Positions 35,987 to 61,644 of a DNA stretch of 64,000 nucleotides are shown piece after piece (position 1 is the first letter of the stretch; each line of letters opens with the position of its first letter). A program made the translations under genes and the position numbers. The notes under the pieces were generated by a model, which saw only the letters and a list, made by a program, of their open reading frames with translations, was not told the DNA's origin and did no database searches. This DNA comes from Bdellovibrio sp. (GTDB lineage: Bacteria > Bdellovibrionota > Bdellovibrionia > Bdellovibrionales > Bdellovibrionaceae), in the NCBI GenBank assembly GCA_036676395.1, contig JAKFCY010000002.1, positions 2,208,001 to 2,272,000 on the forward strand, in the 5' to 3' direction.

Positions 35987-37816
35987 CTAGGCCATAGCGC
36001 TAGGTAATTGTGTTGATCTGTTCTTTTTAAAACGCGGTTGATTCATTGTATGATATTTTCTGCGTGTGTGCTCTGCTCTTCGTTCTGCGCTGAACGATGT
36101 TACCCGTTTTAAATAACCAATTACGCGGGTTGCATGATCTATGTTTTCTGAGCCACATTTTGCACAACTATGCTTAGTTTTTTTATCAATATGATTGCAT
36201 TCGTTGCAGATAGTGATCTTCACGTTTGTACAAAAATAATTGCAGCCTGTGACTGTAGCCAATTCTATGATTTTTTCATATTGAGCTGGTGTCAGGTGTT
36301 CTTCTAAATTTAAATGCAAAGCAGAGCCGCCGTCTAGATACTGAGTCATCTCTGAGCCGTGCATCGAGAATTTTTCAAGCGGATTCGTCATTTCATCTTC
36401 GACAATGTAAAAGTAAGAATTATAACAATCGCGTGGAACGAAATAGCCATCCTTTCTGTCCCATTCGGCATTTTTAACACCTAAGTTTTCGGCCGGTACA
36501 AATTCGGTATTAAATTTGTAACCAGTTTGGGCCGAACGTTCACGGTTAAGATCGTAAATAACTTTAAGATTTTCTGAGACGAATTTTTTATATTCGGCGT
36601 TGTCACTGACTTCATAACCAAGGTATTCAGCCGCTTCAACCATTCCGTTGATTCCAATCGTTAAATACTGTTTATTCATAGAAATAAAACCCGCATCATA
36701 TGTAGTTAGCATTTTCGCATCCATAAAATCTTCCATTACTTTACGATAAGCTATTTGATAGTTTTGAATTTTTGACACCTCTAAACCAAGATCACGCTTA
36801 TCTTGAATAAGGCGATTCATATTTAGAGTAATCACATTAATGCTGCCTGTGGCTACCCCACCGGCTCCAAGCGTGTAAGAAAATTCTTTTGTGTTCACTT
36901 CGTTTCTAAGTCTGCAGCAGCTGGCTAAACTATCTGCACTTTCAGATAAATACATAAAAAAAGAATTTCCCTGTGATAACTCGTGCGCAGACATTTTTAC
37001 ATAGTCACTATCTTTTGGTTTTTTGCCATCAGTTAACATAGCTACGGTAACTACAGGAAATGTAAGTACCGCTTTTTTACGCTCTAAATTAAACCACTGC
37101 ATAAAATATTTTTGTAAAGTATCTACTGTCTTCCATTTTGGTTTTTCGCCATTTGGGAATACAAAGTTTTCAAACAAGGCATCAAAGTAAAATCGGTCAT
37201 ACACAGAAATATTCCAGAAAACAGATTGATAACCGCGCGCAGCCGCTGGTTGATTAATTGAATATACCACCTGCTGCAGGTATGAACTGACTTCTGTTGT
37301 GTGTGTTGTTAAATAGTCATCGCCATATTCTTTGCGTGCGAAATAATCAAAATATGTTAAAAATTCAACTGTAGCGACAGCTCCTGCGAACTGAGAGCTT
37401 ACTGCAAATACAAAATTAACGAATGTTCCGCAAAACGAGGCTAAATGTTTAGGAGCTTTTGATTCGCCCCCCATTTTAATTAAACCGTCGATTAGCATAG
37501 GATACATACTGACAGATACACAATAAGGCTTAAGTGACGTCTCATCGTGCACGTAAATTTCATGTGATTCAATTTGTCGAATGTATTCGCGGGCTAATTC
37601 AGGTGAAAATAATTTTTCTATTTTGCGTGAGATGATAGCGCGATTAATTTGAATGTTTATATCTTTATTTACCTCAGCTTCAAGTGTTGCGATGTTTTTC
37701 ATTGTGACATTCGCATTGGCATCAAGTTTTGAGCCATCGGCGGCATTAATTGCGCTCAAGTAGCTGTCAATGTAGTTAATTTTTTTTTCGATTTGAGTGT
37801 TGTCTAGACGAATCAT
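35987..37816 (-). CDS. nrdD: Anaerobic (class III) ribonucleoside-triphosphate reductase, no ATP cone
   Basis: YVHD, PYC, ASCCRL finger loop, CNEC/CAKC Zn site, glycyl-radical motif RVIGYL. Confidence 0.95.
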   Translation of the reverse strand: MIRLDNTQIEKKINYIDSYLSAINAADGSKLDANANVTMKNIATLEAEVNKDINIQINRAIISRKIEKLFSPELAREYIRQIESHEIYVHDETSLKPYCVSVSMYPMLIDGLIKMGGESKAPKHLASFCGTFVNFVFAVSSQFAGAVATVEFLTYFDYFARKEYGDDYLTTHTTEVSSYLQQVVYSINQPAAARGYQSVFWNISVYDRFYFDALFENFVFPNGEKPKWKTVDTLQKYFMQWFNLERKKAVLTFPVVTVAMLTDGKKPKDSDYVKMSAHELSQGNSFFMYLSESADSLASCCRLRNEVNTKEFSYTLGAGGVATGSINVITLNMNRLIQDKRDLGLEVSKIQNYQIAYRKVMEDFMDAKMLTTYDAGFISMNKQYLTIGINGMVEAAEYLGYEVSDNAEYKKFVSENLKVIYDLNRERSAQTGYKFNTEFVPAENLGVKNAEWDRKDGYFVPRDCYNSYFYIVEDEMTNPLEKFSMHGSEMTQYLDGGSALHLNLEEHLTPAQYEKIIELATVTGCNYFCTNVKITICNECNHIDKKTKHSCAKCGSENIDHATRVIGYLKRVTSFSAERRAEHTRRKYHTMNQPRFKKNRSTQLPSAMA

Positions 37817-37817
37817 A

Positions 37818-38276
37818 TTATACCCCTTCCGTAAAGTAATGATTCAGGTTTTCACCTGTACGTAAATTGATTAGTTTTTGATTTGTTGTCGGCGAACTGA
37901 GTCCGCCTTTTTCCGCGATATAGGGGCCGTATTTGACATAATCAAGCATATCAAGAAGTGGCTTTGGAATGTCTTCTAATGAATGGCCAGAATAAAGCGC
38001 TGTTTTAAGTTCGTGTTGTTTGCTGGTAATAATTAATTGTTGTAATTCGTGAGCTTGCCATTCGCCTCCTAAGAAAAGCACGCAGCTAATATATTTTTTA
38101 TGTTTTGTGATGAGTTCTGTTAAAGTCTGCTGGTTAAGGTCTGCACCAAGGTCTGGGCGCCATAAATCACTTGAATGACAACCGGGACAACGCAAGGGGC
38201 AGCCGACGACATGTATCCCGAGAGAAACTTCAGTTGGTATTTCTTGAAATGTAACCTGTAGACCACTATATCTCAT
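37818..38276 (-). CDS. nrdG: Class III RNR activating radical-SAM protein
   Basis: GCPLRCPGCHS, FLGGEW, GPY...TTNQ. Confidence 0.93.
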   Translation of the reverse strand: MRYSGLQVTFQEIPTEVSLGIHVVGCPLRCPGCHSSDLWRPDLGADLNQQTLTELITKHKKYISCVLFLGGEWQAHELQQLIITSKQHELKTALYSGHSLEDIPKPLLDMLDYVKYGPYIAEKGGLSSPTTNQKLINLRTGENLNHYFTEGV

Positions 38277-38310
38277 GTCTTGATTACATTTGAGATACTA
38301 TATCTAGTCA
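38263..38310. promoter_or_regulatory. Tandem NrdR boxes
   Basis: CCACTATATCTCATGT (38263-38278) and ATACTATATCTAGTCA (38295-38310), 32 bp apart, matching the NrdR consensus and usual tandem spacing. Confidence 0.75.
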
Positions 38311-38337: not shown

Positions 38338-38351
38338 ATGATGGTTATCAT
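38338..38351. promoter_or_regulatory. Fnr/Dnr-type box for nrdGD
   Basis: ATGAT-GGTT-ATCAT; -10 TACTTT (38315-38310) at class II spacing. Confidence 0.75.
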
Positions 38352-38352: not shown

Positions 38353-39387
38353 TTACTTATTCTGCAAAACATGGCCTTTAGTCGTAAAAATAATGTGCGT
38401 GGCAATAATCAAAAGAGCCAAACCAATAACGGCGATAATAAATTGCAACGGTCTAAAATATTGCCATGAATAATCAAGAAAAGTAATCGCAATACACATA
38501 GCTATTCCTAAATTAGCAAATAAAAAACTGTATCTGTATTTTAAATACAATTCAAAATAGTAGATGGGAAAAATCGTTAAGAAACAAAAATGCAAAGAAG
38601 CAATTTGCAAATTATATCCTAATTGGCGTGGCCATATCCCACTGAAAATGATACCTGCCCCCAGAAGTGTAAAGTAAAAATTAACATTACGTAAAAATGA
38701 AAAATTAATTTTTATAAATGTTAGGCTATACACCAGTATAATACTACCCAAGATGATTAAGCCGATATTCACTGGTAAAAAATGAAGAATTTGAATTTCA
38801 AATAAATAATTTAAAACCACAGAAGCAGACCATAGTAGGATTGGAAATTTTTTATATAAATCAAACAGAATTGTCGGCAGAACAATAAATAATATTATAT
38901 TAGAAATAAAACCATGCACAAAATTAATTTTGGGTGTTGCTGGAAGAAGTTTCTGGCCGACAATAACAAAGACTAACGAAGCCAGTGCTAGAACAGAACT
39001 TAGTTGCATATATTTCTGAAACGCAGGAGCTAGTTTTTTTAACTTAAAACTTTGATATATCCAGGTCGCAAATACAACAGCAGACAAGACATGTGATAAC
39101 CAGTTATAACCAAATACTAAAAACGATACAAATGCCATGAATGTGGCGACAAAATACACAAGAAGAACAGTCGGCTGTCGCTTTTCTTCGAAACTTATTT
39201 GATTGATAACCCAAGTCAGCGGAATCAAAAAACCATAAAAGCCTAAATGACTATGGGCTTGTCGTAAATCGAAATGTTCTAAAATGGATAGACTAAAGCC
39301 TGCGAATTGTAACCGCATTAAAATGCCTATAGTCATAACTAGCAAAAGCGAAGTAAGTGAAAATAATGTGACCTGGCGATCAGTCAC
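38353..39387 (-). CDS. Uncharacterised polytopic membrane protein with HSH motif
   Basis: Roughly 11-12 TM helices, LRQAHSHLGFYG; GTG at 39387 with GGAG overlaps the regulator stop. Confidence 0.7.
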   Translation of the reverse strand: MTDRQVTLFSLTSLLLVMTIGILMRLQFAGFSLSILEHFDLRQAHSHLGFYGFLIPLTWVINQISFEEKRQPTVLLVYFVATFMAFVSFLVFGYNWLSHVLSAVVFATWIYQSFKLKKLAPAFQKYMQLSSVLALASLVFVIVGQKLLPATPKINFVHGFISNIILFIVLPTILFDLYKKFPILLWSASVVLNYLFEIQILHFLPVNIGLIILGSIILVYSLTFIKINFSFLRNVNFYFTLLGAGIIFSGIWPRQLGYNLQIASLHFCFLTIFPIYYFELYLKYRYSFLFANLGIAMCIAITFLDYSWQYFRPLQFIIAVIGLALLIIATHIIFTTKGHVLQNK

Positions 39388-40081
39388 ATTGCTCCATTTG
39401 ATGAATAAGCCATTCAGGCTGAAGAATTTTAATGTGATGATCTGTTGTGCTGATGTAACCGTGCTTGGCCCAGTCACTCATTACGCGAATGACTGATTCA
39501 ACAGTGACTCCCAGTGAATCTGCAATTTCTTTACGAGTAAGCGGAAGTGGAACTTCAAGTTGTCCTTCTGTTTTGGTATCATCAGCGGCTAGCTGCAATA
39601 ACAATGAGGCGACCTTTGAAGCCATTGGAGCTCGTTGCATGACTTTATGATTTTGTAATCTCGCCATGCGAGTTGAAAAAAGGCTCTGAATTTTAATAAT
39701 TAACATTGGATTTTTAATCCAGTAATTAAGATAGGTATCCTGGGGAATAACTAACATTCGCGCTGGCCCCATGGATTTTACTGTCACTGGATAGGGAGTA
39801 TTTTTTTTGGTCATCACTAAAGCCGCAACGACATCGCCAGGTGATGAGAAGTGAATGACAGATTCTTCGCCGACAGGTGAAATACGAGTCAGTTTATAGG
39901 CTCCTGACAATACTACTCCAAAATGTGTTGCAGGTTCGCCAAGGGTAAAAACGATTTGTTTGTGTGCGTGAACTTTAATATTGGCATTTTCACATAATTG
40001 CTGAACCGTAGATTCGTCAAAGTCTTTAAATAACTCAAATTTTTTGATTTCAACCAAGGCCGATTTTAATGCGCTATTCAT
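39380..40081 (-). CDS. Crp/Fnr family regulator 1 (Dnr-like, no Fnr Cys cluster)
   Basis: cNMP-like domain, LTRKEIADSLGVTVESVIRVM HTH. Confidence 0.92.
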   Translation of the reverse strand: MNSALKSALVEIKKFELFKDFDESTVQQLCENANIKVHAHKQIVFTLGEPATHFGVVLSGAYKLTRISPVGEESVIHFSSPGDVVAALVMTKKNTPYPVTVKSMGPARMLVIPQDTYLNYWIKNPMLIIKIQSLFSTRMARLQNHKVMQRAPMASKVASLLLQLAADDTKTEGQLEVPLPLTRKEIADSLGVTVESVIRVMSDWAKHGYISTTDHHIKILQPEWLIHQMEQCD

Positions 40082-40149: not shown

Positions 40150-40163
40150 ATGATTTAAATCAT
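40150..40163. promoter_or_regulatory. Fnr/Dnr-type box for the HiPIP gene
   Basis: ATGAT-TTAA-ATCAT; -10 TAGTAT at 40186-40191. Confidence 0.8.
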
Positions 40164-40223
40164 CGAAATCGGTCTTCTAATTGAATAGTATATGATAAAA
40201 CCCAAAAACCAAGAGGTGATTGT

Positions 40224-40562
40224 ATGAACAGAAGACAGTTTATTTTAAATAGCGGAGTGTTAGCGAGCGGAATGCTTTTTTTATTGAGTGGAAAAGCCCT
40301 TGCCGAAGGTGGTCGTCGCGGAAAAGGAAATGCCGGCGGAGATCCTGAATTAGTAAGTCCAAAAGATAGTGTTGCTAAGGCAGTAGGCTACATTGAAGAC
40401 TTCAAAAAATCAGGAAAGCAAGCTGCAAATAAATGTTCAAATTGCACCCTATACGTTAAAGGCAAAGACCAAAATGGTAAAGAAGTTGGCGCGTGCGCTC
40501 TTTTTCCAAAAAAATTGGTCTTAGGAGATGCCTACTGTAATTCTTGGGCGAAAAAAGCTTAG
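40224..40562 (+). CDS. High-potential iron-sulfur protein (HiPIP), Tat-exported
   Basis: NRRQFI Tat motif; CSNCTLY...CALFP...YCNSW four-Cys HiPIP pattern. Confidence 0.88.
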   Translation: MNRRQFILNSGVLASGMLFLLSGKALAEGGRRGKGNAGGDPELVSPKDSVAKAVGYIEDFKKSGKQAANKCSNCTLYVKGKDQNGKEVGACALFPKKLVLGDAYCNSWAKKA

Positions 40563-40591: not shown

Positions 40592-41998
40592 TTATTGTGC
40601 GGTCTTTCTTGCGCGTGTTTGGATAAAAAACCAAACAGTACCCAGTGATAAAAGTAACGAACCTAAATATTTAATCCAGCGACCAGGATCAAGATTTACC
40701 GACAAAACTGAGGCTGTTGGCTCACCGGTCTTATCGTCTTGATTAAAGCTGGCTTGATAAAATGTGTACCCTGCGTATTTCATCGGTTCATTCATTGCAA
40801 TTACCCCAGAAACAGGTGATGTACCTTCAGGCGGAACGATTTCGACAGAACTTGAGTAAGTTCTGGCTTTTTGAGTTCCATTATAATGGGTCATTTCAAA
40901 CTTTTTCAAATAAACTGGAAATCCAATATCAATGCGGCGGTTTTGAAAACTGAATAAAAACGCTTTGTTTTCACCGAAAAGTTTAATCACATCATTTAAT
41001 AAGGTCCATTGTGTTTTTTCGCCAAACTGAATTAATAAAGCCGGGCTTGTTAGTGGTGTTGGTCGTTTAATTTCAACCGCATCCCATTCTTCAGTGGCTT
41101 GCGGAAGATAGTCTAATACACGAATTTCTAAACCCATCCAGCCTGTGACAATCATGTCGCCGATTTTTATTACGCCTGTTTTAAACGGTTTCACTTCTTC
41201 TTTATGATAAAGTTCGTAAAAAAGTTCTGAATCGTTTTTAACATTAAAATACATTTCATTTGTTGAACGGTCTTTGCGGCCATTGTCTTTAATGCTATGG
41301 CCAAGAACTACTTTTAAAGGACCAAAATTCACATCAGCTGAGTTAGTTTTACTTGGTTGAGTTAACGTTTCAACTTGCTGAACATTGGCGTTTTGCAATT
41401 GGAATTTGACTGAAGCGCCGACATTTACATCTGTCGACTTTTTCAATTTTTTACTAACCTGGGCATATTTAAGATATTTTTTTATCGTGATTTCATCGCT
41501 TCCCAATTGAACTTTGAAAGGCTTTTCTTCCGTCGGCGGATGCATGAAAAAATCCACTTCGTTTTCATAAACTTTTGTGTAGCGATCACCGCCAAAAGTA
41601 GCGTAAACGACAACATCGGTTTGCGCCACAGACACATAATTATTTTTTCCATTAATCGGAAGCACCAATGAACCGTCAAGACCATACTTTTGTGTGACAT
41701 AGCCACCCACAATGATGAGAATAATTCCGATGTGCACGACCAGAAACGGCGCATGCCGCTTCTTCCACGGCATACGATCAACCATCACTATCGTCAGATT
41801 GTAAACCAACAAACCCATGGTCAAATACATCATCCAGCTATGGTAAACTAACTTTCCAGCAGCGAAAGCATCATATTGTGACTCAACGATTGTGCCCCAC
41901 GTGATTAAACAAGTGAGTGTCACTAGAACGGGAATACCTAATTGAAATGATGTAGAAAATCTCCAGAACTTCTGCATCAAAGGGTTTTTAAATCTCAT
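40592..41998 (-). CDS. resB: ResB/Ccs1 cytochrome c biogenesis (system II) protein
   Basis: N-terminal TMs with HIGII, C-terminal MNEPMKYAGYTFYQASF and DPG. Confidence 0.85.
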   Translation of the reverse strand: MRFKNPLMQKFWRFSTSFQLGIPVLVTLTCLITWGTIVESQYDAFAAGKLVYHSWMMYLTMGLLVYNLTIVMVDRMPWKKRHAPFLVVHIGIILIIVGGYVTQKYGLDGSLVLPINGKNNYVSVAQTDVVVYATFGGDRYTKVYENEVDFFMHPPTEEKPFKVQLGSDEITIKKYLKYAQVSKKLKKSTDVNVGASVKFQLQNANVQQVETLTQPSKTNSADVNFGPLKVVLGHSIKDNGRKDRSTNEMYFNVKNDSELFYELYHKEEVKPFKTGVIKIGDMIVTGWMGLEIRVLDYLPQATEEWDAVEIKRPTPLTSPALLIQFGEKTQWTLLNDVIKLFGENKAFLFSFQNRRIDIGFPVYLKKFEMTHYNGTQKARTYSSSVEIVPPEGTSPVSGVIAMNEPMKYAGYTFYQASFNQDDKTGEPTASVLSVNLDPGRWIKYLGSLLLSLGTVWFFIQTRARKTAQ

Positions 41999-42006
41999 AC
42001 GTACTT

Positions 42007-43734
42007 CTATCTCTCCATTAATAGTGAAATTTGCCTAATAAATTCATCAATAAAGTTTACATTTGTGTTAACCGAATTAAAAAAAGGATTCATTGTTGTT
42101 AGGCGTATCAAAGTCAGTTCTTTTTGATCGACAGAAATATTAAAACTTTTATTAAAGTGATCTAACACGCTTTCATGGCTTTCTGATATCAACGTTTTAG
42201 AAATGTAAAAAACATCTTTGTCTTCAGCAAGTATTTTGTCTTGAAATTTTTTAATCACGTTTTTTGTTTGTTCATTGATCTCGCTCAGGCATTGCCCGCG
42301 CTGGCCAATGGCGAAGCACAAAATATTTGTCATTTCACTTTCAATGATCAAAACTGGCAAACCACTATTTATAAGTTTTTCTTTTAAAAGATGACAGGTC
42401 TTAATTGTGCGAAGAATAATCTGACCATACCCCTGCTCATCAAAACCAATACATGACGAGGTCATATAGGTTGCCACCGCACCAGCGGCCGATCTGGAAC
42501 CTTCTAACGTATATGGACCGCGATCTTTTTGATTTTGAAAATCAACATAAGGAGCTTGTGTTTCTTGGATAAAGTAATCTTCAGCCGTTCGGCAAATAAA
42601 TGCCCCTGAAGAATATGGCACATAGCCAAGTTTATGCGGGTCAACAGTAATTGAAGTGCTATGGGCTAGTGCTGCTAAAGCTAATTTAATGTTTTCACCA
42701 ATTTCTTTGTCGTTCACAGATTTAATCGTGGCGAAAAAACCACCGTAAGCTGCATCAACGTGATGCCAAAACTGATAACCATATTCTTTTTTGAAATGAT
42801 CTAATATTGCTTGTGTTTCATGAATAGGATCAATGGTGCCAAACTCTGTCGAACCACATACACTATTCACAGAGACAATTGGAATTTGTTCTTGCAAACA
42901 TTTTTCTATTGCAGACTTCAACACTTTTATATCAATCTGCCCCCATTTATTCAGCGGAATTTGCCGAAGACCTTCTACACCAAAGCCAAAGTATTTAGCC
43001 GCTTTTGTCCAAGAATAGTGTTTACTGGCCGGTACAAACATAACCGCGCCGTTAAATTCGCTTTTAAACTGCTTTTCAATCCACCTTGCTAGCTGAATAT
43101 CAGAAAGCTCTGATATTTTTGTTTGTCCTTGCAACGACGTCAGTGACCGAACATAACTAGCGTCGTTAATACTTTTTTTTGAACCTGTATGTGATTGTAA
43201 ATTTAGAATCCATTTGCGTTTGGCTCGAACAACACTTTCAAAATTAGCCACTGTCCCGCCACTGGTAAAATGCCCGATAGCCTCACTGCTGTATCCGAAC
43301 ATTTTAACTAAAGCCTGAATGGCTTCATTTTCAATTTCGACACCAACACGTGAAGATTCTTTTGATACATTGTTTGGATTATGCAACAGACAAATTAAAT
43401 GACCAAGTAACGCAGGTAGCGATAATTCAGAAAACATGTGACCAATATATCGCGGAGAAAATTTTGGAATTTCATCAGAAAATCGCTGTGACAAGATATT
43501 GATCTGAGTACGAAAAAGTTCAATTTTTCTTTGAAACTCCGGGGCTGATTGATCTGGCTGCGAAATCGCGCCGCCGTCTAATGGAAAACGCTCTTTACGC
43601 CAGTTAATCCACGTTGAAAGTATATTATCGACTTCTTGTTTGAAAAAATTTGCGTTTTCAGCTTGAGGTCCTAAAAAAAAACTCTTTAACGCAATTTCAT
43701 CTGAAGAGCATGGTTTTATTAAATTTCTATTCAT
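42007..43734 (-). CDS. Group II PLP-dependent amino-acid decarboxylase (tyrosine-decarboxylase-like)
   Basis: RYIGHM, TSGGTVAN, HYSW, HVDAAYGG, VDPHKLGYVPY, LEGSR. Confidence 0.88.
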   Translation of the reverse strand: MNRNLIKPCSSDEIALKSFFLGPQAENANFFKQEVDNILSTWINWRKERFPLDGGAISQPDQSAPEFQRKIELFRTQINILSQRFSDEIPKFSPRYIGHMFSELSLPALLGHLICLLHNPNNVSKESSRVGVEIENEAIQALVKMFGYSSEAIGHFTSGGTVANFESVVRAKRKWILNLQSHTGSKKSINDASYVRSLTSLQGQTKISELSDIQLARWIEKQFKSEFNGAVMFVPASKHYSWTKAAKYFGFGVEGLRQIPLNKWGQIDIKVLKSAIEKCLQEQIPIVSVNSVCGSTEFGTIDPIHETQAILDHFKKEYGYQFWHHVDAAYGGFFATIKSVNDKEIGENIKLALAALAHSTSITVDPHKLGYVPYSSGAFICRTAEDYFIQETQAPYVDFQNQKDRGPYTLEGSRSAAGAVATYMTSSCIGFDEQGYGQIILRTIKTCHLLKEKLINSGLPVLIIESEMTNILCFAIGQRGQCLSEINEQTKNVIKKFQDKILAEDKDVFYISKTLISESHESVLDHFNKSFNISVDQKELTLIRLTTMNPFFNSVNTNVNFIDEFIRQISLLMER

Positions 43735-43768
43735 ACAGTGATTTTAGACTTTGCAAATCACAGATTCA

Positions 43769-43782
43769 CTGATCTATATCAT
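43769..43782. promoter_or_regulatory. Fnr/Dnr-type box for the decarboxylase-resB operon
   Basis: CTGAT-CTAT-ATCAT centred 41.5 bp from the ATG; TAAAAT lies 6 nt before the ATG. Confidence 0.78.
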
Positions 43783-50923: not shown

Positions 50924-50926
50924 CTG

Positions 50927-52754: not shown

Positions 52755-52768
52755 ATGATCTAAATCAT
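52755..52768. promoter_or_regulatory. Fnr/Dnr-type box for the nirK operon
   Basis: ATGAT-CTAA-ATCAT; TAACCT/TATAAC -10 candidates within 1 nt of class II spacing. Confidence 0.8.
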
Positions 52769-52821
52769 GTTTTAATTCTTCATAACTCGTATAACCTATA
52801 GTCATCTCGAAGGGAGAGATT

Positions 52822-54243
52822 ATGATAAAGTTAAAGTTCAAAATAATAATACTGCTTATGCTTGCTGGTAATATGGCATTAGCTAGTAGCAAGGATAGCG
52901 AAGTTGCAGTATTGACAGCTCCACCGCACGTACCACCACAAATTACACGTAGTAAATCAGTAAAACTCGTGGTGCATCTTGAAGTGATCGAAAAGAAGAT
53001 GAAAATTTCAGACGGGGTTGATTACACATTTTGGACTTTCGGTGGCACTGTACCCGGCAGCTTTATCCGAATTCGTGAAGGTGATGACGTTGAGTTTCAC
53101 TTAAAAAATCACCCCAGCTCTAAAATGCCACATAATATCGACTTACACGCCGTAACTGGGCAAGGTGGCGGTGCTGCGGCTTCGTTTACTTCACCAGGGC
53201 ATGAAAGCGTTTTCTCATTTAAAGCCATAAATCCGGGCCTATATGTGTATCACTGCGCAACTGCACCGGTTGGTATGCATATCGCTAACGGTATGTATGG
53301 TTTAATTTTAGTCGAACCAAAAAAAGGAATGCCTAAAGTTGATCGCGAATACTATGTCATGCAAGGTGACTTCTACACTAAAGGAAAATTTGGCGTTCAA
53401 GGCTATCAACCCTTTGATATGGCTAAAGCTGTTGATGAAAAGCCGACATATGTCGTATTTAATGGATCAACAAGCTCACTATCTGGTGATAACGCGATCA
53501 AAGCTAACGTGGGTGAAACTGTACGTCTATTTGTTGGTAACGGTGGCCCTAACTTAGTTTCTTCTTTTCACATCATCGGCGAAATATTTGATAAGGTCTA
53601 TAAAGAAGGCGCATCAGAGTATAATACTAATATTCAAACGACTCTAGTTCCTGCCGGTGGTTCAGCTATTGTTGAGTTTAAGGTTGAAGTGCCTAGTAAT
53701 CTTGTTCTGGTAGATCACTCAATTTTCAGAGCTTTCAATAAAGGTGCCTTAGGAATCATGAAAGTTGAAGGAGCTGAAAATAAAGAAATTTTCACAGGAA
53801 AAACTGCAGACAATATCTATCTACCTGAAGGTGGAGCAATTCAAAAAATTGCTGACAAAGAAAAAATTGCAACGGCAGCCAATATTGAAGATCAAATTAA
53901 ACTTGGTAAAACAGTGTATGCAAACAACTGTGCAGCCTGCCACCAACCTGATGGTAAAGGCATCACAGGTGCGTTTCCTCCTCTGGCGAACTCTGATTAC
54001 TTCAATGCTGATCACAAAAGAGCAATTAGCGTAGTTAAAAATGGTCTTACTGGAAAAATCACAGTTAATCGTCAACAATTTAATGCTGTTATGCCATCTT
54101 TAGGTTTATCAGATGCTGATATCGCAAATGTTCTAACTTATGTATCAAACAACTGGGGTAATAAAAAACGCAAATACACTAAAGAAGAAGCTGCAGCTGT
54201 TCCTAAAACTAACGGGCAACAAACTGGCGAAGGAGAACACTAG
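52822..54243 (+). CDS. nirK: Copper-containing nitrite reductase with fused C-terminal cytochrome c
   Basis: HNIDLH, YHCA...HIANGM, SSFHIIG, VDH copper motifs; CAACH heme motif. Confidence 0.96.
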
Positions 54244-54245
54244 TC

Positions 54246-55019
54246 ATGAAACAACTATGGCGCTTACTTTTTATATTTAATTTAGCTTTGGTAACACAGG
54301 CTAGCGCCATAGAATTAATCGCGGTACCAGCTGGCCAACTTGAAGCCATCTGGTTATCGCCGATGTCTGTTAAAACAAAAAACGAAACAAAAACTACACG
54401 TACGTTCATTCGTGTTAATAAATTTCAACTCATGCCAAAGGCTGTGACTGTTAAACAATATCAAGATTTTCTGAACAAAAACACTCAATGGCAGAAAATT
54501 ACAGCAAGTTCGCTTTTTACTGATGGCAATTATTTAAATAATCTTGAAAAATCACCAGACTCATCACCAGTTACAAATGTCAGCTGGTTTTCGGCACGTG
54601 CATTTTGCAAGTCACATGGTTTAAGACTACCCACTCTTAGCGAATGGGAATATGCCGCGGCCGCATCAGAAAACAAAAAAGATGCTAATAAAGATGAAAA
54701 ATTCTTAAGTCGTATCTTGGCTTGGTACGGAGAACCACAAACTGAGCAAATTAAATCGGTCGGTTCTGTTTATAAAAATCTTTATGGTGTATATGATATG
54801 CACGGCCTTGTCTGGGAATGGGTTGAAGATTTCAACACAACATTTGTCACCGGCGAAAGTCGTGAAGACAGTTCATTTAATAAAGATATGTTTTGTGGTG
54901 CTGGCGCATTAGCATCCAACGACAAAGAAAACTATGCTGCATTTATGCGTTTTGCTTTTAGATCTAGTTTAAAAGGAAAAAACTCAATCTGGAATTTAGG
55001 ATTTCGCTGCGCACTTTAG
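54246..55019 (+). CDS. FGE-sulfatase domain protein (NirV-like)
   Basis: RLPTLSEWEYAA, YDMHGLVWEWV, GFRCA; directly follows nirK. Confidence 0.85.
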   Translation: MKQLWRLLFIFNLALVTQASAIELIAVPAGQLEAIWLSPMSVKTKNETKTTRTFIRVNKFQLMPKAVTVKQYQDFLNKNTQWQKITASSLFTDGNYLNNLEKSPDSSPVTNVSWFSARAFCKSHGLRLPTLSEWEYAAAASENKKDANKDEKFLSRILAWYGEPQTEQIKSVGSVYKNLYGVYDMHGLVWEWVEDFNTTFVTGESREDSSFNKDMFCGAGALASNDKENYAAFMRFAFRSSLKGKNSIWNLGFRCAL

Positions 55020-55031
55020 AAGGAGCCCATT

Positions 55032-55592
55032 ATGAAACAAAAACTAAAACTTTTTTTAGCAATTTTTACTTTCACACAAATTAGTCTAGCTGCAAGCTTG
55101 GCAGATATTGAATCTTTCTGGTTAACGACAGAAAATAAAAAAGTTACGATTGCATCTACCGTCGGATCAACTTATTCACTTATTGCTATGGTCTATACAG
55201 GCTGCGCCCATGCATGCCCTTTGACGATTGCCAAAATGCAAAAAATACTTAAAGACTTTAAAGCCAAAAATGTAACTGACGTGCAGGTTATTCTTTCGTC
55301 GTTCGATGTGAAAGGAGATCGACCTGATAAACTAAAAAAATATCAGGCTGATAAAAAACTTGATGTCAAAAAATGGCATTTTTTGGCAGCAGAATCCGAA
55401 GCAGACGCACGTGAGTTAGCCGTTACGTTAGGAATTAGTTATAAAGATCTTGGCGATGGCGATTTTTCGCACAGCAATCTCATTACACTATTAGGACCAG
55501 GTGGCGAAGTTTTATCTTCAATCGATAACTTAAATGCTGATTCAGATAAATTAGTCGAGGCTCTACAAGCTCACAGAAAACTAAAAAAATAG
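55032..55592 (+). CDS. SCO family copper chaperone
   Basis: YTGCAHACP (CxxxC) and conserved His in FSHS. Confidence 0.88.
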   Translation: MKQKLKLFLAIFTFTQISLAASLADIESFWLTTENKKVTIASTVGSTYSLIAMVYTGCAHACPLTIAKMQKILKDFKAKNVTDVQVILSSFDVKGDRPDKLKKYQADKKLDVKKWHFLAAESEADARELAVTLGISYKDLGDGDFSHSNLITLLGPGGEVLSSIDNLNADSDKLVEALQAHRKLKK

Positions 55593-55598
55593 GTACTT

Positions 55599-56726
55599 AT
55601 GAATTCAGAACAAAGTAACAAGTCAGACTCTTTTGATGTAGAACCTTACAGAATTCTTTTTCCAATCGGAATTCTATGCTCATTCGTCGGCATTTTACTT
55701 TGGATCTTTGTTCAATTTCGCATGATTAGCTTTTATCCTAATTTTGCACACGGAAATCTAATGTACTTTGGCTTTATGTGGGCTTTTATTGCTGGTTTTT
55801 TAATGACCGCTATTCCAAAAATGACCTCAACATTTACGGCGACAATTGCTGAAGTTTCTATTGCGATATTACTTTGTATGTTGCAGTTAACTCTCAACCT
55901 TCGTAACGAAATACTGCCATCGTCTTATTTAGTTATTTTTCAGCAGCTTTTTCTTATCTATTTTATCACACGGCGTTTTACTAAAGCTAAAAAAATGCCC
56001 TTCGCCAGTATTCTATTTATCCCGGCGGCACTCCTGATATCGCTTGCGGGCTCTTTGATTTATAGTTTTAACGCTGATCGATCTATCTTACTTTTGTTAA
56101 GTGGAGAAGCCTTCATACTGAATCTTATTCTTGGGCTTGGAAGCCGGCTCATCCCTGTGATCTCACGTTTACCAAATGCTTTAATGCCAAATCAGGCTTC
56201 TCAAGATTCACCGCAGTTTTTTAATACACTTGTTTTGATTGTCATGTTTAATTTAACATTCATCACCCAGCTTTTAGGTTTTGAAAATTTCAGCCTTATT
56301 TCGCGTACCTTAATCATCACATACGTACTCTTTAAAAACTTCAGTATTCTCACCAAACCCGTCAAATGGACAGCCGTGGGTGTTGGTTTGAAAATCTCAA
56401 CGGCGCTACTGCCGCTTGGTACACTTCTTTCAGCTCCGTATTTTGGCAGCCCCTTAGCTGGTCTTCATGTTTTGTATATTGGTGGTTTTGTTCTGGTTAC
56501 GTTACTTATTTCTACACGAGTAGTTTTAGCCCACGGTGGAGAATCACTCGATTATGAAGTTTCATCAAAACGAGTTATGACTTTCACTGCATGTCTTGTC
56601 AGTGCCAGCATACTCAGATACAGCGCAGGTTATCAAGTGACGTCATTATCCGTGCAAATCGCCATAGTGTTATTCATTGTTTCAATCGGTGCGTGGTCTG
56701 TTAAAATGCTAAACAGTGCGAAGTGA
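55599..56726 (+). CDS. nnrS: NnrS family membrane protein
   Basis: EPYRILFP, HGNLMYFGF, GFLMTA, RVVLAHGG. Confidence 0.82.
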   Translation: MNSEQSNKSDSFDVEPYRILFPIGILCSFVGILLWIFVQFRMISFYPNFAHGNLMYFGFMWAFIAGFLMTAIPKMTSTFTATIAEVSIAILLCMLQLTLNLRNEILPSSYLVIFQQLFLIYFITRRFTKAKKMPFASILFIPAALLISLAGSLIYSFNADRSILLLLSGEAFILNLILGLGSRLIPVISRLPNALMPNQASQDSPQFFNTLVLIVMFNLTFITQLLGFENFSLISRTLIITYVLFKNFSILTKPVKWTAVGVGLKISTALLPLGTLLSAPYFGSPLAGLHVLYIGGFVLVTLLISTRVVLAHGGESLDYEVSSKRVMTFTACLVSASILRYSAGYQVTSLSVQIAIVLFIVSIGAWSVKMLNSAK

Positions 56727-56749: not shown

Positions 56750-57676
56750 TCAAGCTGAAACCTCGACTACTTTTACACATTGATCTGAGTTTACTAAAAT
56801 TTTCTTAATCATTTTACGCCAGTTGAGGGGAAATGGATCTGTAGGTTTATCATCAAAAGCAAAGGCTTCACCCGGAGCATAATAGACATCAATAATTTTT
56901 CCCGTAGATAAACGCCGAAATCGAAAGGCCCCGCTGGGAACTTGTTGATTTTCAAATTCAAGTAAATTTCTTCGGCGAAATTGTCCTGATAAACCACCAA
57001 AACCACTGGCTCCCCATGACCCAAAAATCATCGAAAAAACATTACAGATAGGTCCCGTTGCACCGGATTCAACTGAATTTACTGTTGCTATTTGCACATC
57101 ACCGCGAAGCACGACTTCATCTGAAAACAAATATCGGGTCGCCACTTTGGCTATCAGGAAAGCCCCAATCATCGATGGGCAGGCATGCCCTGAAAATCGA
57201 ACAACGTCTAATAATGTAATTGCAAAACTGGATTCAGACTCGGTCGCTTTTAAATATTCCGCGAATGGTTCGCGGATCAAAAGTTTATTCTCCAGTAAAT
57301 CTTGTTCAGTCATATAATCAGGCTTTAACAATTCAGTGACTTTTTCATAAACGTTTTCAGCTTCTTGCGGATCAAAATCTTGATGAATACGTTTTACAAC
57401 TCCCAAATCAGATAAAACAATATGATGATTCGGCTTAATACCGTGCCGAGCTAAAATGTTTTGCGTACATTTAAGCTGACATCCATCAAGAGCAATTATC
57501 GTTTCAGCAGTTTTAGCAACACGTACTAAGCTTGGAACGTCACCTCCAACGCCTGCGATACAACTCATTTCAGCGATCTTATCGCGATCCAGCTTTATCG
57601 CAATCTGATTCGCCATTTGCGCCGCCGTCGAACAGCCCGAACACGAATACACAATCGGTAATTTGTTTTTTCCCAT
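56750..57676 (-). CDS. Fusion of a DGC putative zinc-binding domain and an FmdE-like domain
   Basis: N-terminal YSCSGCS...CIAGVG...DGCQLKC; C-terminal FSGHACPSMIGA. Confidence 0.7.
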   Translation of the reverse strand: MGKNKLPIVYSCSGCSTAAQMANQIAIKLDRDKIAEMSCIAGVGGDVPSLVRVAKTAETIIALDGCQLKCTQNILARHGIKPNHHIVLSDLGVVKRIHQDFDPQEAENVYEKVTELLKPDYMTEQDLLENKLLIREPFAEYLKATESESSFAITLLDVVRFSGHACPSMIGAFLIAKVATRYLFSDEVVLRGDVQIATVNSVESGATGPICNVFSMIFGSWGASGFGGLSGQFRRRNLLEFENQQVPSGAFRFRRLSTGKIIDVYYAPGEAFAFDDKPTDPFPLNWRKMIKKILVNSDQCVKVVEVSA

Positions 57677-57684
57677 ATGGGCTC

Positions 57685-58851
57685 CTATCTGTACGCCGGT
57701 ATACCGGTGATATATTCGCCAATAATCAATCTATGTATATCTTCAGTGCCTTCGTACGTATTCACGCTCTCTAAATTTAACAGATGACGGCCACACTGAT
57801 ATTCGTAAGTAATGCCGCTGGCTCCAAGAATGTCTCGAGTCACTCTGGCGCAATCCAGTGCCATTGATACGTTATTCATTTTAGCCATCGAAATTTGAAC
57901 AGGTAAGGCTTTACCTGCATCTTTCAAACGCCCAAGTTGCACTGCCAAAAGCTGCGCCTTGGTTATTTCTGTAATCATATTAGCAAGTTTTGCCTGTACT
58001 AATTGATAACCCGCAATAGGTTTGTCAAACTGAACTCTGGTCTTTGCGTAACTCAAGCCTTCGTCATAACAAGCCATAGCAGCGCCGATTGCACCCCATG
58101 AAATTCCAAAACGGGCATTATTCAAACAGGCAAATGGACCTTTTAAACCCTGAACTTCAAGAACTTGTGATGCTGGAACTCGCACATTATCAAAAATTAA
58201 TTCAGATGTGACCGAAGCTTTGAGTGAAAATTTTTTTTGAATATCACGAACTGAAAAACCGGGTGTTTCACGGTCGACGATAAAACCACGAATCTTTTTA
58301 TCATCATCCTTCGCCCAGACAATGGCCAGATCAGAAAACCCGCCGTTTGTGATCCACATTTTTGCACCATTAATAATATAATCATTACCATCTTTTGTCG
58401 CACGGGTGATCATGCCGCCAGGATTTGAACCGTAGTCAGGTTCGGTCAATCCAAAACAGCCTATCAGCTCCCCCTTCGCCATCTTCGGCAAATATTTTTT
58501 CTTTTGTTCTTCCGTGCCGAATGCATAAATTGGAAACATACACAGTGCACCTTGAACACTGACAAATGAACGTATACCTGAATCACCACGCTCAAGTTCT
58601 TGCATAATAACACCGTAAGAGGTGTAACTCAGCCCGGCGCAACCGTATCCTTTAATAGTTGCTCCCAGCGTTCCCATCTCGGCCAGTTGCGAAATAAGCT
58701 TCATCGGAAAGCGGCCCGCTTCGTAATCTTCAGCTATAGTTGGAAGTATCTCTTTTGAAACAAAGTGTCGCACTGATTTCTGAATATCTCTTTCTTCATC
58801 GCTAAGTAAATTTTCAATATTAAAAATATCGCCTGGATTAAAGTTTTTCAT
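57685..58851 (-). CDS. gcdH: Acyl-CoA dehydrogenase, glutaryl-CoA dehydrogenase type
   Basis: ELERGDSG, GCFGLTEPDYGS, KMWITNG, CLNNARFGISWG, NTYEGT. Confidence 0.85.
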   Translation of the reverse strand: MKNFNPGDIFNIENLLSDEERDIQKSVRHFVSKEILPTIAEDYEAGRFPMKLISQLAEMGTLGATIKGYGCAGLSYTSYGVIMQELERGDSGIRSFVSVQGALCMFPIYAFGTEEQKKKYLPKMAKGELIGCFGLTEPDYGSNPGGMITRATKDGNDYIINGAKMWITNGGFSDLAIVWAKDDDKKIRGFIVDRETPGFSVRDIQKKFSLKASVTSELIFDNVRVPASQVLEVQGLKGPFACLNNARFGISWGAIGAAMACYDEGLSYAKTRVQFDKPIAGYQLVQAKLANMITEITKAQLLAVQLGRLKDAGKALPVQISMAKMNNVSMALDCARVTRDILGASGITYEYQCGRHLLNLESVNTYEGTEDIHRLIIGEYITGIPAYR

Positions 58852-58862
58852 ATATTCCTTTG

Positions 58863-59780
58863 TTATGTGAATGATTGAATAAGTTTCTGTAAATCTGTGA
58901 TTGACGGCCGTAGCTGTTGTTCATTGAGTTCACGCAGCGGCGTAGCTGTTAAATTTGTATATTGATGAAATGGCTCTGTATTTTCATTCCTATAAATGAG
59001 CCCTGTCAGAATTTTTTCTTTCTCTTTAGCTTCGGCCAAAAGACGCACCGCCAACCTTTTATCTTTGGCATCATATGCAGGTAAACTATGTATTACTTCT
59101 ACTAGCGGCAGACTTTGCTCTTTAAGATAATCGTAACTTTTTGTTGAACCCTCGTGATTGTTAAAAGTAATACACGGCGAAACAATATCAATGATAGCAG
59201 TGCCCGCATGTTGAATTGCTTGTTTTAAAATATTCACAGTCAACTTTGTATTCGACGACCCTGTGCGTGCGACAAAATCACAACCCATTTCAAGTGCAAA
59301 AGAACATATATCAATGCCTTCATAAAAGTTTCTTCGACCCGATTTTAAAATCGATTTTTTATCTGCAGTTGGTGAAAATTGCCCTTTGGTTAATCCGTAA
59401 ACACCGTTATTAGCTACGATGTAAATCATTTTCACATTACGACGAATTAAATGGGCAAATCCCCCCAAACCAATACTGGCTGAATCACCGTCGCCACTAA
59501 TGCCGATATAGATTAAATTTGTGTTAGCAACATGGGCTCCCGTTGCTATTGGCGCCATACGACCGTGCATTGAGTTTATGCCCTGCGATTTTGACATGAA
59601 GTATCCTGGAAGTTTTGACGAACACCCAATGCCCGAAGTCTTAATAACATCGTAAGGGTCAATGCCAAGTTCAAAAAAAGCTGAAATAATATTTTGTGTG
59701 ATTTGATCATGGCCGCACCCCGTGCAAAGCGTTGACTTTCCGCCAGTGTAATCAGCGCGAGTCAGAGAAGAATTACTCAT
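58863..59780 (-). CDS. 2-oxoacid:ferredoxin oxidoreductase beta subunit
   Basis: CTGCG, SGIGCSS, MHGR, GDGD...NN TPP motif, YGLTKGQ, SPC. Confidence 0.92.
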   Translation of the reverse strand: MSNSSLTRADYTGGKSTLCTGCGHDQITQNIISAFFELGIDPYDVIKTSGIGCSSKLPGYFMSKSQGINSMHGRMAPIATGAHVANTNLIYIGISGDGDSASIGLGGFAHLIRRNVKMIYIVANNGVYGLTKGQFSPTADKKSILKSGRRNFYEGIDICSFALEMGCDFVARTGSSNTKLTVNILKQAIQHAGTAIIDIVSPCITFNNHEGSTKSYDYLKEQSLPLVEVIHSLPAYDAKDKRLAVRLLAEAKEKEKILTGLIYRNENTEPFHQYTNLTATPLRELNEQQLRPSITDLQKLIQSFT

Positions 59781-61596
59781 TATCTGCTCCCTTATTTTTA
59801 TTTTCACTTTCGGCAATGCGGTTCGCTAATTCTATAGCCTGCATGGGTATCCCAGAATAATGCTTAACAGAATTAAATCTTTGCCAATACTCTGGATAAT
59901 GTACCTTCAGTAGATCAAACACCTGACTGCTTTGATTCAAGTCTAAAACATAAACCATTTTTTTTCGCTGGATGTACTCTTTAACCTTGCTATGAAATGG
60001 CAATGACCGAATCCGTAAATAATCACAATGAATATTTTTTTCCGCAAGTAGCTGAATAGTTTCAAGCAGAATTTCAGCAGCTGATCCATAACAGACTATT
60101 CCTACATCAAAGCCTTGATCTTGAATGACTGGTTCTGGTAAAACTAACACCGACTGCTGCCATTTTTTTTCTAAACGATCAACGACCTCGATATATTCAT
60201 TTTCTTTTTCTGTATAGACACCTTTGATATTATGACCAGATCCACGGGTTAAATAAGCCGCGTCAGGGTGTCTTGTTCCTGGCAATGCTCGTGCTGCGAC
60301 GCCATCACTCTCTGCGCTAAAGTAGCGTTGGTAACGCTGACCTTGAAGTGCCATTTGTTCCAAGTTTTCGGATGTTAAAACTTTACCCCGGTTAAATCGT
60401 TGATCAGAAAACCGAAATTGATTAGTTCTCCAGATATTCATTCCTATATCTAAATCAGACAACACATAAACTAGTGTCTGCAAACCTTCAGCAATATCCA
60501 ATGCCAACTGTGCAAATTCAAAACACTCTTCTGGATGACCAGGCAATAAAAGTGGAAAATGCGTATCTCCATGTGACGAATAGTAAGCTGCAGAAATGTC
60601 TCCCTGCGCACTTCGCGTCGGCATGCCTGTCGAAGGACCTGCGCGTTGTACATTCCAAATTACACAAGGGATTTCTGCGTAATAAGCATACCCAGCTGCT
60701 TCGTGCATCAAACTAAGTCCCGGACCAGACGTGGCTGTGAAAGACCTTGCCCCATTCCAACCGGCGCCCAAGGTCATGCAAATACTTGATAGTTCATCTT
60801 CAGCCTGTATCACCGAAAAATTATTTTTTCCATCATCTGAAACTCGATACTTCTGACAGAATTTTTCAAAACTTTCCATCAGAGACGTCGACGGAGTTAT
60901 CGGATACCACGATGCAAATGTAGCCCCTCCATAGAGCATGCCTAGCGCTGCCGCTGTATTGCCGTCAATTAACATTTGATTTGAATTTTTCTGTGTCGGC
61001 ACAATTTTGATAGGAAGTTGAATGTCCGAAAGTTTTTCTCTAACGAATTTAACACCAAGACTAAATGCATTACGATTTTGGCGTAGCACGTTTTCATTCT
61101 TTAAAAAGAATTCTGTTAACGTTTCCTCCACAAGATTAGACGGCAGTCTCAATAACTCAGAGACAACACCGACGTAAACAGAATTAACTAAATATTTTTT
61201 GTATTTAACTTGTTCAGACGCCTGCCCCGCCAACTCATAAAAAGGAACTGAAATATAAAACAAATCATCGCGACTTGCAGCGAATGTATTTTTACTTTTG
61301 CTATCAAAAATAAAAACACTGCCTGCCTGAGCATTCTGATGATCGTCGATCAATGTTTGATCATTCAAAGCCACTGTAATATCGGCTTTAAGCTGTAGCC
61401 CGGTATACCCCGCTTCAGAAGCTCGCAAATAATACCACGTTGGCATACCTTGAATATTAGAAGGAAAAATATTTTTTGCGCCTACAGGTATTCCTGTTCG
61501 AAATAAAGATTTAAGCAAAATTTGATTCGAAGTTTGTGAGCCGCTGCCATTAACAGTCGCTATTTTTATTGAAAAGTTATTTACACTAACAGACAT
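59773..61596 (-). CDS. 2-oxoacid:ferredoxin oxidoreductase alpha subunit (gamma-alpha fusion)
   Basis: YPITP, QAEDE, TSGPG, QRAGPSTG, SHGD. Confidence 0.92.
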   Translation of the reverse strand: MSVSVNNFSIKIATVNGSGSQTSNQILLKSLFRTGIPVGAKNIFPSNIQGMPTWYYLRASEAGYTGLQLKADITVALNDQTLIDDHQNAQAGSVFIFDSKSKNTFAASRDDLFYISVPFYELAGQASEQVKYKKYLVNSVYVGVVSELLRLPSNLVEETLTEFFLKNENVLRQNRNAFSLGVKFVREKLSDIQLPIKIVPTQKNSNQMLIDGNTAAALGMLYGGATFASWYPITPSTSLMESFEKFCQKYRVSDDGKNNFSVIQAEDELSSICMTLGAGWNGARSFTATSGPGLSLMHEAAGYAYYAEIPCVIWNVQRAGPSTGMPTRSAQGDISAAYYSSHGDTHFPLLLPGHPEECFEFAQLALDIAEGLQTLVYVLSDLDIGMNIWRTNQFRFSDQRFNRGKVLTSENLEQMALQGQRYQRYFSAESDGVAARALPGTRHPDAAYLTRGSGHNIKGVYTEKENEYIEVVDRLEKKWQQSVLVLPEPVIQDQGFDVGIVCYGSAAEILLETIQLLAEKNIHCDYLRIRSLPFHSKVKEYIQRKKMVYVLDLNQSSQVFDLLKVHYPEYWQRFNSVKHYSGIPMQAIELANRIAESENKNKGADNE

Positions 61597-61630
61597 GCTT
61601 CTATTTTTGTCGACCTATGATGATTTAGAT

Positions 61631-61644
61631 ATGACATAAGTCAT
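61631..61644. promoter_or_regulatory. Fnr/Dnr-type box for the OFOR-gcdH operon
   Basis: ATGAC-ATAA-GTCAT, palindromic arms centred 41.5 bp from the ATG. Confidence 0.72.

Follow-up and report, generated by a model that had tools for sequence, protein, structure and literature searches.

The window analysed here is a 64,000-nt stretch of a Bdellovibrio sp. genome (G000:C2:2208001-2272000), and positions given without a contig prefix count from its first nucleotide. The genome is 3.40 Mb in 14 contigs, has about 40% G+C and is 99.3% complete. Between positions 35987 and 61644 lies a gene cluster with six short intergenic palindromes, which we call Boxes 1 to 6, and with genes for two Crp/Fnr-family regulators, crp1 and crp2; this report concerns the regulon that the boxes and regulators are predicted to form around nitrite and nitric oxide (NO) reduction. 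The matrix used to score the boxes was built from 25 sites that adjoin crp1 orthologues of other genomes and were collected without constraint on the outer base; this avoids circularity. The features of the cluster, with the palindromes given without strand, are:

35987-38276, minus strand: nrdG-nrdD operon, which encodes the activase of anaerobic ribonucleotide reductase and the reductase itself (TIGR02826, score 171.6, cut-off 151.7; TIGR02827, RNR_anaer_Bdell, score 955, cut-off 568).
38338-38351: Box 1, ATGATGGTTATCAT, matrix score 14.5; centre 68.5 nt from the nrdG ATG (38276, minus strand); -10 element TACTTT at 38315-38310.
39380-40081, minus strand: crp1 (P0001), Crp/Fnr-family regulator, helix T-V-E-S-V-I-R, two Cys in total.
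40150-40163: Box 2, ATGATTTAAATCAT, matrix score 16.7; at -41.5 for the HiPIP gene, with -10 element TAGTAT at 40186-40191; 75.5 nt from the crp1 ATG.
40224-40562, plus strand: high-potential iron-sulfur protein (HiPIP; PF01355, E = 2.7e-13).
40592-43734, minus strand: operon of a pyridoxal phosphate (PLP)-dependent decarboxylase (42007-43734) and a ResB-like protein (40592-41998).
43769-43782: Box 3, CTGATCTATATCAT, matrix score 15.3; centre 41.5 nt from the PLP-decarboxylase ATG; -10 element TAAAAT at 43746-43741, 6 nt before the ATG.
43803-47059, minus strand, downstream of crp2: orf191, hemN (45017-46408) and a protoporphyrinogen-oxidase-like gene (43803-45020).
47041-47715, minus strand: crp2 (P0002), second Crp-family regulator, helix T-T-E-S-V-I-R.
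47750-47763: Box 4, ATGATTTAAATCAT, matrix score 20.8, the best in the genome; two divergent promoters, with -10 elements TAAGCT at 47786-47791 (plus strand, orf97-norCBQD) and TAGCGT at 47727-47722 (minus strand, crp2, ATG 41.5 nt from the centre).
47818-52744, plus strand: orf97, di-haem cytochrome c, NorB, NorQ and NorD genes (norCBQD), with CbbQ_C and VWA domains.
52755-52768: Box 5, ATGATCTAAATCAT, matrix score 20.4, before nirK; -10 element TAACCT at 52792-52797, one nt further out than at the other promoters.
52822-56726, plus strand: nirK-cytochrome c fusion (NirK TIGR02376, score 372, cut-off 296), followed by genes for an FGE-sulfatase-like protein, SCO1/SenC and NnrS (PF03781, PF02630, PF05940).
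56750-61596, minus strand: operon of 2-oxoacid:ferredoxin oxidoreductase alpha and beta, acyl-CoA dehydrogenase and a DGC-domain protein (TIGR03710, TIGR02177, PF02771/PF00441, PF08859).
61631-61644: Box 6, ATGACATAAGTCAT, matrix score 19.9, third in the genome; centre 41.5 nt from the oxidoreductase alpha ATG; weak -10 element AAAAAT at 61608-61603, 6 nt before the ATG.

Matches to family models and solved structures agree with the gene identities named in a first-pass annotation of this DNA. NorB matches 3o0r_B (E = 1.2e-111), HemN scores 423.5 with TIGR00538 (cut-off 325), and the oxidoreductase scores 493.9 with TIGR03710 (cut-off 482.75) and 209.3, under the cut-off of 261.9, with TIGR02177. 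The decarboxylase matches PF00282, with 220 bits for TIGR03811 falling under the cut-off of 905; the ResB-like gene starts 8 bp after it, and its product has a partial match to PF05140. orf97 has a weak match to DUF2249.

The same annotation had reported the six palindromes, and all are present at their positions. Those at 38338, 40150, 47750 and 52755 are perfect copies of ATGAT-N4-ATCAT, the one at 43769 has a single mismatch (CTGAT...), and the one at 61631 has two mismatches, yet fits the family motif ATGAY-N4-RTCAT. With at most one mismatch, ATGAT-N4-ATCAT occurs 12 times in the window versus 3.81 +/- 2.00 times in shuffled sequence, and none of 100 shuffles reaches 12; the motif is thus rarer in random DNA than here, and equal frequency is what the annotation had said would count against its proposal. 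NTGAT-N4-ATCAN has 190 sites genome-wide, 11 with an outer A..T pair, and 21 of the 190 are intergenic by our gene calls from open reading frames (ORFs); four intergenic perfect sites have A..T and every one is in the cluster. A position weight matrix scan with an enrichment test had been suggested as a check, and we ran both with the matrix from relatives. Eighteen matches in the 3.4 Mb score at least 15, eight of them intergenic (p = 1.3e-4) and five inside the 23.3-kb span of the boxes (p = 1.2e-7). The first three places in the genome go to 47750, 52755 and 61631, and since the matrix of the relatives ranks it third, 61631 is a very good site under ATGAY-N4-RTCAT despite its degenerate look. 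The 16-mer TATGAY-N4-RTCATA has three copies in the genome, all inside the cluster.

Beyond the cluster, three intergenic matches score at least 15, and these lie together outside the window at C2:2376099-2377283, before two hemerythrin genes. This second locus (G000:C2:2375568-2377283; L075 5568-7283) encodes a hemerythrin-PAS_10 fusion of 319 aa, preceded by tandem boxes 44 bp apart, and a plain hemerythrin of 164 aa; in both genes 42.5-43.5 nt separate the start codon from the centre of a box. Weaker candidates across the genome, some with the same geometry, precede genes for an IS200-like transposase, a Mur ligase, a porin, a phosphopantetheinyl transferase and a cation-efflux protein as well as nameless ORFs, and because they score low or lie inside called genes they were set aside as chance or undecided. 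The cation-efflux candidate, ATGATTGGAATAAT at 4059-4072, has TAGGGT at the exact class II offset and lies 45.5 nt upstream of its gene (3373-4020, minus strand); given its low matrix score it may be a chance match. Between Box 3 and the decarboxylase ATG (43735-43768) there is also an inverted repeat with 7-bp arms, GTGATTT-N10-AAATCAC, which overlaps the predicted -10 element and could be a second operator.

Both crp1 and crp2 match PF00027 and PF13545 above the gathering scores, which places them in the Crp/Fnr superfamily. The first-pass annotation had taken them for Fnr-like sensors, and here it does not hold up. One of the two Cys of crp1 is semi-conserved (24 of 29 orthologues, compared with 28 for His40 and 23 for His77), the Cys of crp2 are not kept among 36%-identical orthologues, and neither protein has the [4Fe-4S] Cys cluster of Fnr. 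Fnr is further characterised by a helix E-x-x-S-R that reads TTGAT-N4-ATCAA, and this is absent too: both helices are E-S-V-I-R and the boxes are ATGAY-N4-RTCAT. The solved homologues nearest to crp1 are DNR (3dkw, E = 8e-14) and 3fx3, although the 3dkw match is on a par with those of unrelated Crp members, and the best NCBIfam model, FixK (NF050806), reaches 60.6 bits against a cut-off of 300, which is below the FixK equivalog level, and no model is above its cut-off. Three traits of Dnr/NnrR-type regulators are found, namely the lack of Fe-S cysteines, linkage to nir and nor genes, and a palindromic box at about -41.5 of nir and nor promoters. Since there is no Cys cluster in either protein and no Fe-S Fnr was found in the genome, we class crp1 and crp2, from their sequences, as Dnr/NnrR-like and not as Fnr; NO sensing by them is a prediction. 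In the same way, since there is no Fe-S sensor, anoxia as the signal is something that we infer, and the target set looks like one suited to a Dnr/NnrR-type signal, NO or nitrite.

It is improbable, though it deserves more weight than the other alternatives considered below, that the boxes serve an oxygen sensor of the Fnr type, whose [4Fe-4S] cluster is oxygen-labile, and constitute a strict anoxia regulon, as the first-pass annotation supposed. A true Fnr type, with the Cys cluster and a helix E-T-V-[IM]-R, does adjoin the same ATGA boxes in relatives, and nrdDG and hemN are classical Fnr/Anr targets. A profile search of our own gene calls, however, found three full-length Crp-family proteins, none with Fnr cysteines, and a tblastn search of this 99.3% complete genome with the Fnr type of the relatives found no orthologue, the best match being a 214-aa paralogue (helix S-T-V-I-K, 30% identical) that aligns from query residue 46 and is without the Cys region.

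The third Crp-family protein of the genome, encoded at G000:C2:2032640-2033284, has a helix S-T-V-I-K and lacks a Cys cluster. Among the 21 intergenic perfect-core sites are four with an outer G..C pair, and one of these, GTGATTTTTATCAC at C2:2063864, lies 57 nt upstream of ccoP, after a fused ccoNO. The G..C sites and the third Crp protein may represent a separate regulon for the cbb3 oxidase, which is encoded in the genome and is without one of the boxes described here.

Orthologues of crp1 are present in 46 of 301 genomes of the order, representing six families, and in 7 of the 25 genomes of the genus that were searched, so the module is accessory; crp2 is restricted to one lineage, with 8 of the 301 genomes. 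Matches to crp1 in G218, G233, G157 and G289 (64-66% identical) are reported with one in-frame TGA, which may be a natural stop that is read through. We examined the surroundings of crp1 in 28 non-redundant loci, from which our own locus, its 98% twin and two near-duplicates had been dropped, using the motif TGAN-N4-NTCA within 130 bp. In 22 of the 28 the gene has such a site, and of the 25 sites 18 have an outer A..T pair and none has T..A, in agreement with the earlier proposal that the outer base is systematically A...T. Box 2 is conserved upstream of crp1/HiPIP in relatives. The helix V-E-S-[VI]-I-R is kept in crp1 orthologues down to 43% identity, and at the aligned position DNR (3dkw) and 3fx3 have E-x-x-S-R.

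Isoleucine or methionine at this helix position is found with ATGA boxes in three more diverged clades, which are crp2, a regulator in G009, and the Fnr type with its Cys cluster. The last is a paralogue of 22-25% identity whose N terminus has the cluster C-x2-C-x7/8-C; in G003, G023 and G251 (helix T-E-T-V-I-R) it is flanked by boxes. It is found in all 26 genomes of the largest sister genus and in 179 of 401 genomes of the phylum (E <= 1e-20), a count that includes the present genome, G000, whose sole match (4e-21) is the Cys-less paralogue. Among 30 Fnr-type loci the helix is PETVIR in 21, PETVMR in seven, TETVIR in one and SETVIR in one; 18 of the 30 have an adjoining site, and of the 20 sites 18 have A..T and one T..A. 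In at least four diverged clades of this comparison A replaces T where Ile or Met replaces Ser, and the outer-A box is shown to correlate with Ile (Met in some Fnr-type relatives) in place of Ser; we infer that the residue change is the cause of the base change. The older mutagenesis literature has Ser212 of FNR reading the outer T of the box. Co-variation of helix and base is a general principle according to PMC1274295. In G003, a genome with neither nirK nor crp1, a box and then a heavy-metal P-type ATPase gene (L102 4215-6485; TIGR01525 344.4, just under the cut-off of 346.25) come after the Fnr-type regulator, which suggests a CcoI/FixI-like link to cbb3 assembly.

A negative control in which genomes without crp1 should be without boxes failed: G005, G023, G251 and G297 hold six to eight copies of the 16-mer, and G004 and G118 hold four each. 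This control therefore cannot separate crp1 from other regulators with E-x-x-I-R.

The promoter geometry at the boxes is equally regular. For most boxes the first-pass annotation had seen a TAnnnT -10 element where a site at -41.5 would place it, and we find one exactly 29.5 nt from the box centre in five of eight promoter directions (nrdG, HiPIP, PLP-decarboxylase, crp2 and orf97/nor), with the nirK element 1 nt further out and the oxidoreductase having the weak AAAAAT. Against a background of 0.0236 for TAnnnT at a fixed intergenic position, five exact positions in eight correspond to p = 4e-7. Forty-nine high-scoring sites in relatives, read in 98 directions, have a TAnnnT starting at 29.5 nt in 22 and at 30.5 nt in 12, with about two to three at each of the other offsets (p = 1e-15). 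This is the signature of class II activator-dependent geometry, with the activator predicted to bind at -41.5/-42.5 relative to starts that are themselves predicted. A soil contig that is 98% alike lacks 1 nt between the nirK box and the -10 element, a deletion that would give nirK the common spacing.

In several promoters the start codon itself falls where transcription would be expected to begin. The ATGs of crp2, the decarboxylase and the oxidoreductase, as placed by ORFs, are 41.5 nt from the box centre and without a Shine-Dalgarno sequence, and nirK, orf97 and HiPIP have strong ones; the start codons of the two hemerythrin genes fit the leaderless position within 1-2 nt. All five loci examined for crp2 orthologues have a box, then 22-24 nt, TAnnnT, 6-7 nt and the ATG, and in relatives the start codon lies at 40.5-43.5 nt in 7 of 35 box-driven promoter directions. 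Three to five targets (crp2, the decarboxylase and the oxidoreductase, with the hemerythrin genes) appear, from these positions, to be expressed as leaderless mRNAs.

The palindromes might alternatively be operators for a repressor, such as an NsrR/Rrf2-type nitrite or NO repressor, or sites for some other factor, with the Crp genes as bystanders. They are AT-rich and their central TA is partly conserved (T or A in 36 of 50 half-site reads), and NsrR often runs NO regulons in other phyla (PMC1274295), but the sharp peak of -10 elements at 29.5-30.5 nt is that of an activator replacing the -35 element and not of an operator, and Crp-family genes from four diverged clades have the site beside them; judging by this geometry and linkage (no search aimed at an Rrf2-family gene was made), we regard the explanation as very unlikely. 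That AT-rich intergenic DNA produced these palindromes by chance is next to impossible: the genome does have about 40% G+C and 34 copies of ATGAY-N4-RTCAT, mostly within genes, but the clustering, the intergenic enrichment, the fixed geometry and the conservation across genomes rule it out, as does the count of the 16-mer in 41 genomes of the genus, which is 98 compared with 17 for a reversed control.

We return to crp1 and crp2 and consider it quite likely that the six boxes are their sites, that they act in class II activation, that the two regulators form a cascade and that the whole is a Dnr/NnrR-like regulon with an altered half-site. In the mechanism that we propose, the consensus tATGAY-N4-RTCATa would be bound by the two Crp/Fnr-family regulators encoded in the cluster, and a regulator at -41.5 would activate sigma-70-type promoters in a class II manner. 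The ancestral, order-wide regulator would be crp1, which is probably made first since its own promoter is not class II. The lineage-restricted paralogue crp2, with the same helix, would have a strictly box-dependent promoter, as suggested by the order of box, -10 element and ATG in five of five loci, and is probably downstream of crp1; this would be a two-step cascade as in Anr-Dnr or FixK-NnrR. The regulon would include nrdGD, HiPIP, the PLP-decarboxylase/ResB-like operon, crp2 (perhaps with hemN by read-through), orf97-norCBQD, nirK through nnrS, the oxidoreductase/acyl-CoA-dehydrogenase operon and the two hemerythrin genes outside the window, and its outcome would be a respiratory chain from nitrite to nitrous oxide (N2O) together with oxygen-independent housekeeping functions. 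The regulators probably respond to NO, nitrite or low oxygen, which they would sense without an Fe-S cluster.

A number of observations weigh against this proposal. The crp1 ATG, 75.5 nt from Box 2 here and 64-100 nt from the box in relatives, is outside class II geometry, and 6 of the 28 crp1 loci are without an adjoining site. The predicted sites may be served by crp1, by crp2 or by both, and are not apportioned between the two regulators. The intergenic class, 9.55% of the genome, rests on crude ORF-based gene calls, and the start codons in the leaderless reading are likewise ORF-based. One RNA run (metatranscriptome X19) yielded short contigs from a relative, 92-97% alike, over crp2, orf97, norB and nirK; as these are contigs, with DNA carry-over possible, they reveal neither where transcripts start nor whether they are induced, and a lack of RNA cover over other parts of the window carries no meaning. 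Read directly, the 75 nt that precede hemN contain no box. The recognition rule also has departures: around two VESVIR orthologues from another genus (L099, L100) a range of 1.5 kb holds no ATGA box, just a canonical TTGAT-N4-ATCAA about 750 bp off, the G009 regulator has ATGAT boxes still present with the helix Glu changed to Ala, and a SETVIR-type regulator of the genus with L099 and L100 is found with the hybrid sites ATGAT...ATCAA and TTGAT...ATCAT, so that Ile does not strictly exclude T.

The hybrid sites form a pair, ATGATCGGGATCAA and TTGATCCGGATCAT, in L096-L098 (G070, G200 and G126); they are mirror images of one another, 36 bp apart, and lie about 40-100 bp upstream of the SETVIR-type regulator.

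The first-pass annotation had extended the regulon beyond denitrification, and this extension stands in part. Among 36 proteins scanned downstream of boxes in relatives there were 11 NirK-like proteins, five NrdG, five hemerythrins, two NnrS, two HiPIPs, two alginate-export porins, and one each of a DUF2249 protein, a PLP-decarboxylase and a Crp-family protein, with six that have no family. The PLP-decarboxylase behind a box is in a genome of another family (L072), and oxidoreductase homologues have strong upstream boxes in two of three relatives (G098 and G012, with none in G218). This recurrence supports the extension to nrdDG, to the PLP-decarboxylase/ResB-like operon and to the oxidoreductase. 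The inclusion of hemN as a box target is not supported, since it has no box of its own, and its link to the regulon would depend on read-through from the crp2 promoter.

As judged by gene content, the encoded respiratory chain runs from nitrite to N2O. The annotation had seen no nitrate or N2O reductase in the window, and the observation extends to the whole genome, where no NapA, NarG or NosZ is above its family cut-off. By analogy, nirK, nor, nnrS and the hemerythrins are typical of the NO-responsive target set of Dnr/NnrR, and nrdDG and the oxidoreductase of low-oxygen functions.

The closest known systems are DNR (Pseudomonas aeruginosa/stutzeri) and NnrR (alpha-proteobacteria). As there, a Crp/Fnr protein without the Fnr Cys cluster is encoded beside nirK and nor, a 14-bp palindrome with N4 spacing takes the class II position, and nirK, nor, nnrS and di-iron hemerythrin-type proteins are among the targets. 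The DNR box is CTTGAT-N4-ATCAAG in PMC1274295. Unlike in DNR, the half-site here is ATGAY rather than TTGAT and the helix E-x-x-I-R rather than E-x-x-S-R, and identity is low; unlike in either system, the regulon adds nrdDG, the PLP-decarboxylase and the 2-oxoacid:ferredoxin oxidoreductase. With E. coli FNR and Pseudomonas ANR the cluster shares the 5-N4-5 palindrome at -41.5 and the nrdDG and hemN target classes, but crp1 and crp2 are without the [4Fe-4S] Cys motif, the outer base is A and not T, and Ile occupies the position of FNR Ser212. The arrangement also resembles the Anr-Dnr and FixK2-NnrR cascades, in which two paralogous Crp regulators share one box type and the second promoter, here that of crp2, is box-dependent; it differs from these in that no upstream oxygen sensor was identified here (no search aimed at FixLJ was made) and in that known sensor motifs are in neither member.

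In the wider surroundings of the cluster, the closest named records for NrdD are from Pseudobdellovibrio sp. (86% identity), on which basis we regard the host as a Pseudobdellovibrio-like predator, and soil and groundwater metagenomes hold near-identical copies of the window stretch. A search for related loci with crp1 gave only distant actinobacterial matches to the cyclic-nucleotide (cNMP) domain, and an Rfam scan of the window gave no RNA family. Between crp1 and nrdG there is an ORF of about 341 aa that belongs to no family (38353-39378, minus strand); its identity to the counterpart in the 98% twin genome is only 83%, compared with 98-99% for the neighbouring genes, and in G016 it is missing at that position, with nrdG directly after crp1.

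The surprise that the first-pass annotation attached to such genes in a lineage regarded as aerobic was overstated. A 2026 preprint (10.64898/2026.07.03.736386) describes nitrite and NO reductases in several Bdellovibrio-like genomes and cites anoxic predation by HD100 with nitrate, and with both already in print the surprise is weakened. Our searches of titles, the beginnings of abstracts and main-text terms, not of supplements, found no literature on such a regulon, regulator or box in Bdellovibrio in connection with Fnr. The main texts of PMC3590769 and PMC8510549 contain none of the strings 'ATGA', 'TTGA' and 'Bdellovibrio', and PMC11870529, on Pseudobdellovibrionaceae, mentions neither anaerobic growth nor nitrite nor Fnr. 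The regulon is of an ordinary kind, and its lineage-wide recognition code is apparently undescribed.

Taken jointly, the observations would allow a broader proposal, which we put forward tentatively and think somewhat more likely to fail than to hold in all its parts. All examined Crp/Fnr clades of the Bdellovibrionales (the Fe-S Fnr type, the Dnr-like crp1, crp2 and a fourth type) would pair E-x-x-[I/M]-R with ATGAY-N4-RTCAT as an order-wide recoded Fnr box, in which a single change of Ser to Ile or Met flips the outer pair from T:A to A:T. The Fe-S Fnr would have been lost in the Pseudobdellovibrio lineage, where a Cys-less two-member cascade would drive a regulon rich in leaderless mRNAs, and a supposedly aerobic obligate predator would respire nitrite to N2O and oxidise amino-acid-derived 2-oxoacids via ferredoxin under anoxia.

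The rule of tATGAY-N4-RTCATa with a helix E-x-x-I-R can be used to annotate low-oxygen and NO regulons in Bdellovibrio-like predators, in which standard scans for TTGAT would miss the ATGAY sites, and it offers a natural case of one residue and one base for the Crp/Fnr recognition code. As the module is accessory, strains of the genus with and without it are directly comparable. NirK, cNOR, the class III ribonucleotide reductase, HemN, the 2-oxoacid oxidoreductase and the hemerythrins are genes that a predator would need for an oxygen-free life dependent on nitrite, and their predicted joint control bears on the debate as to whether these predators are active in anoxic niches of soil, groundwater and the gut.

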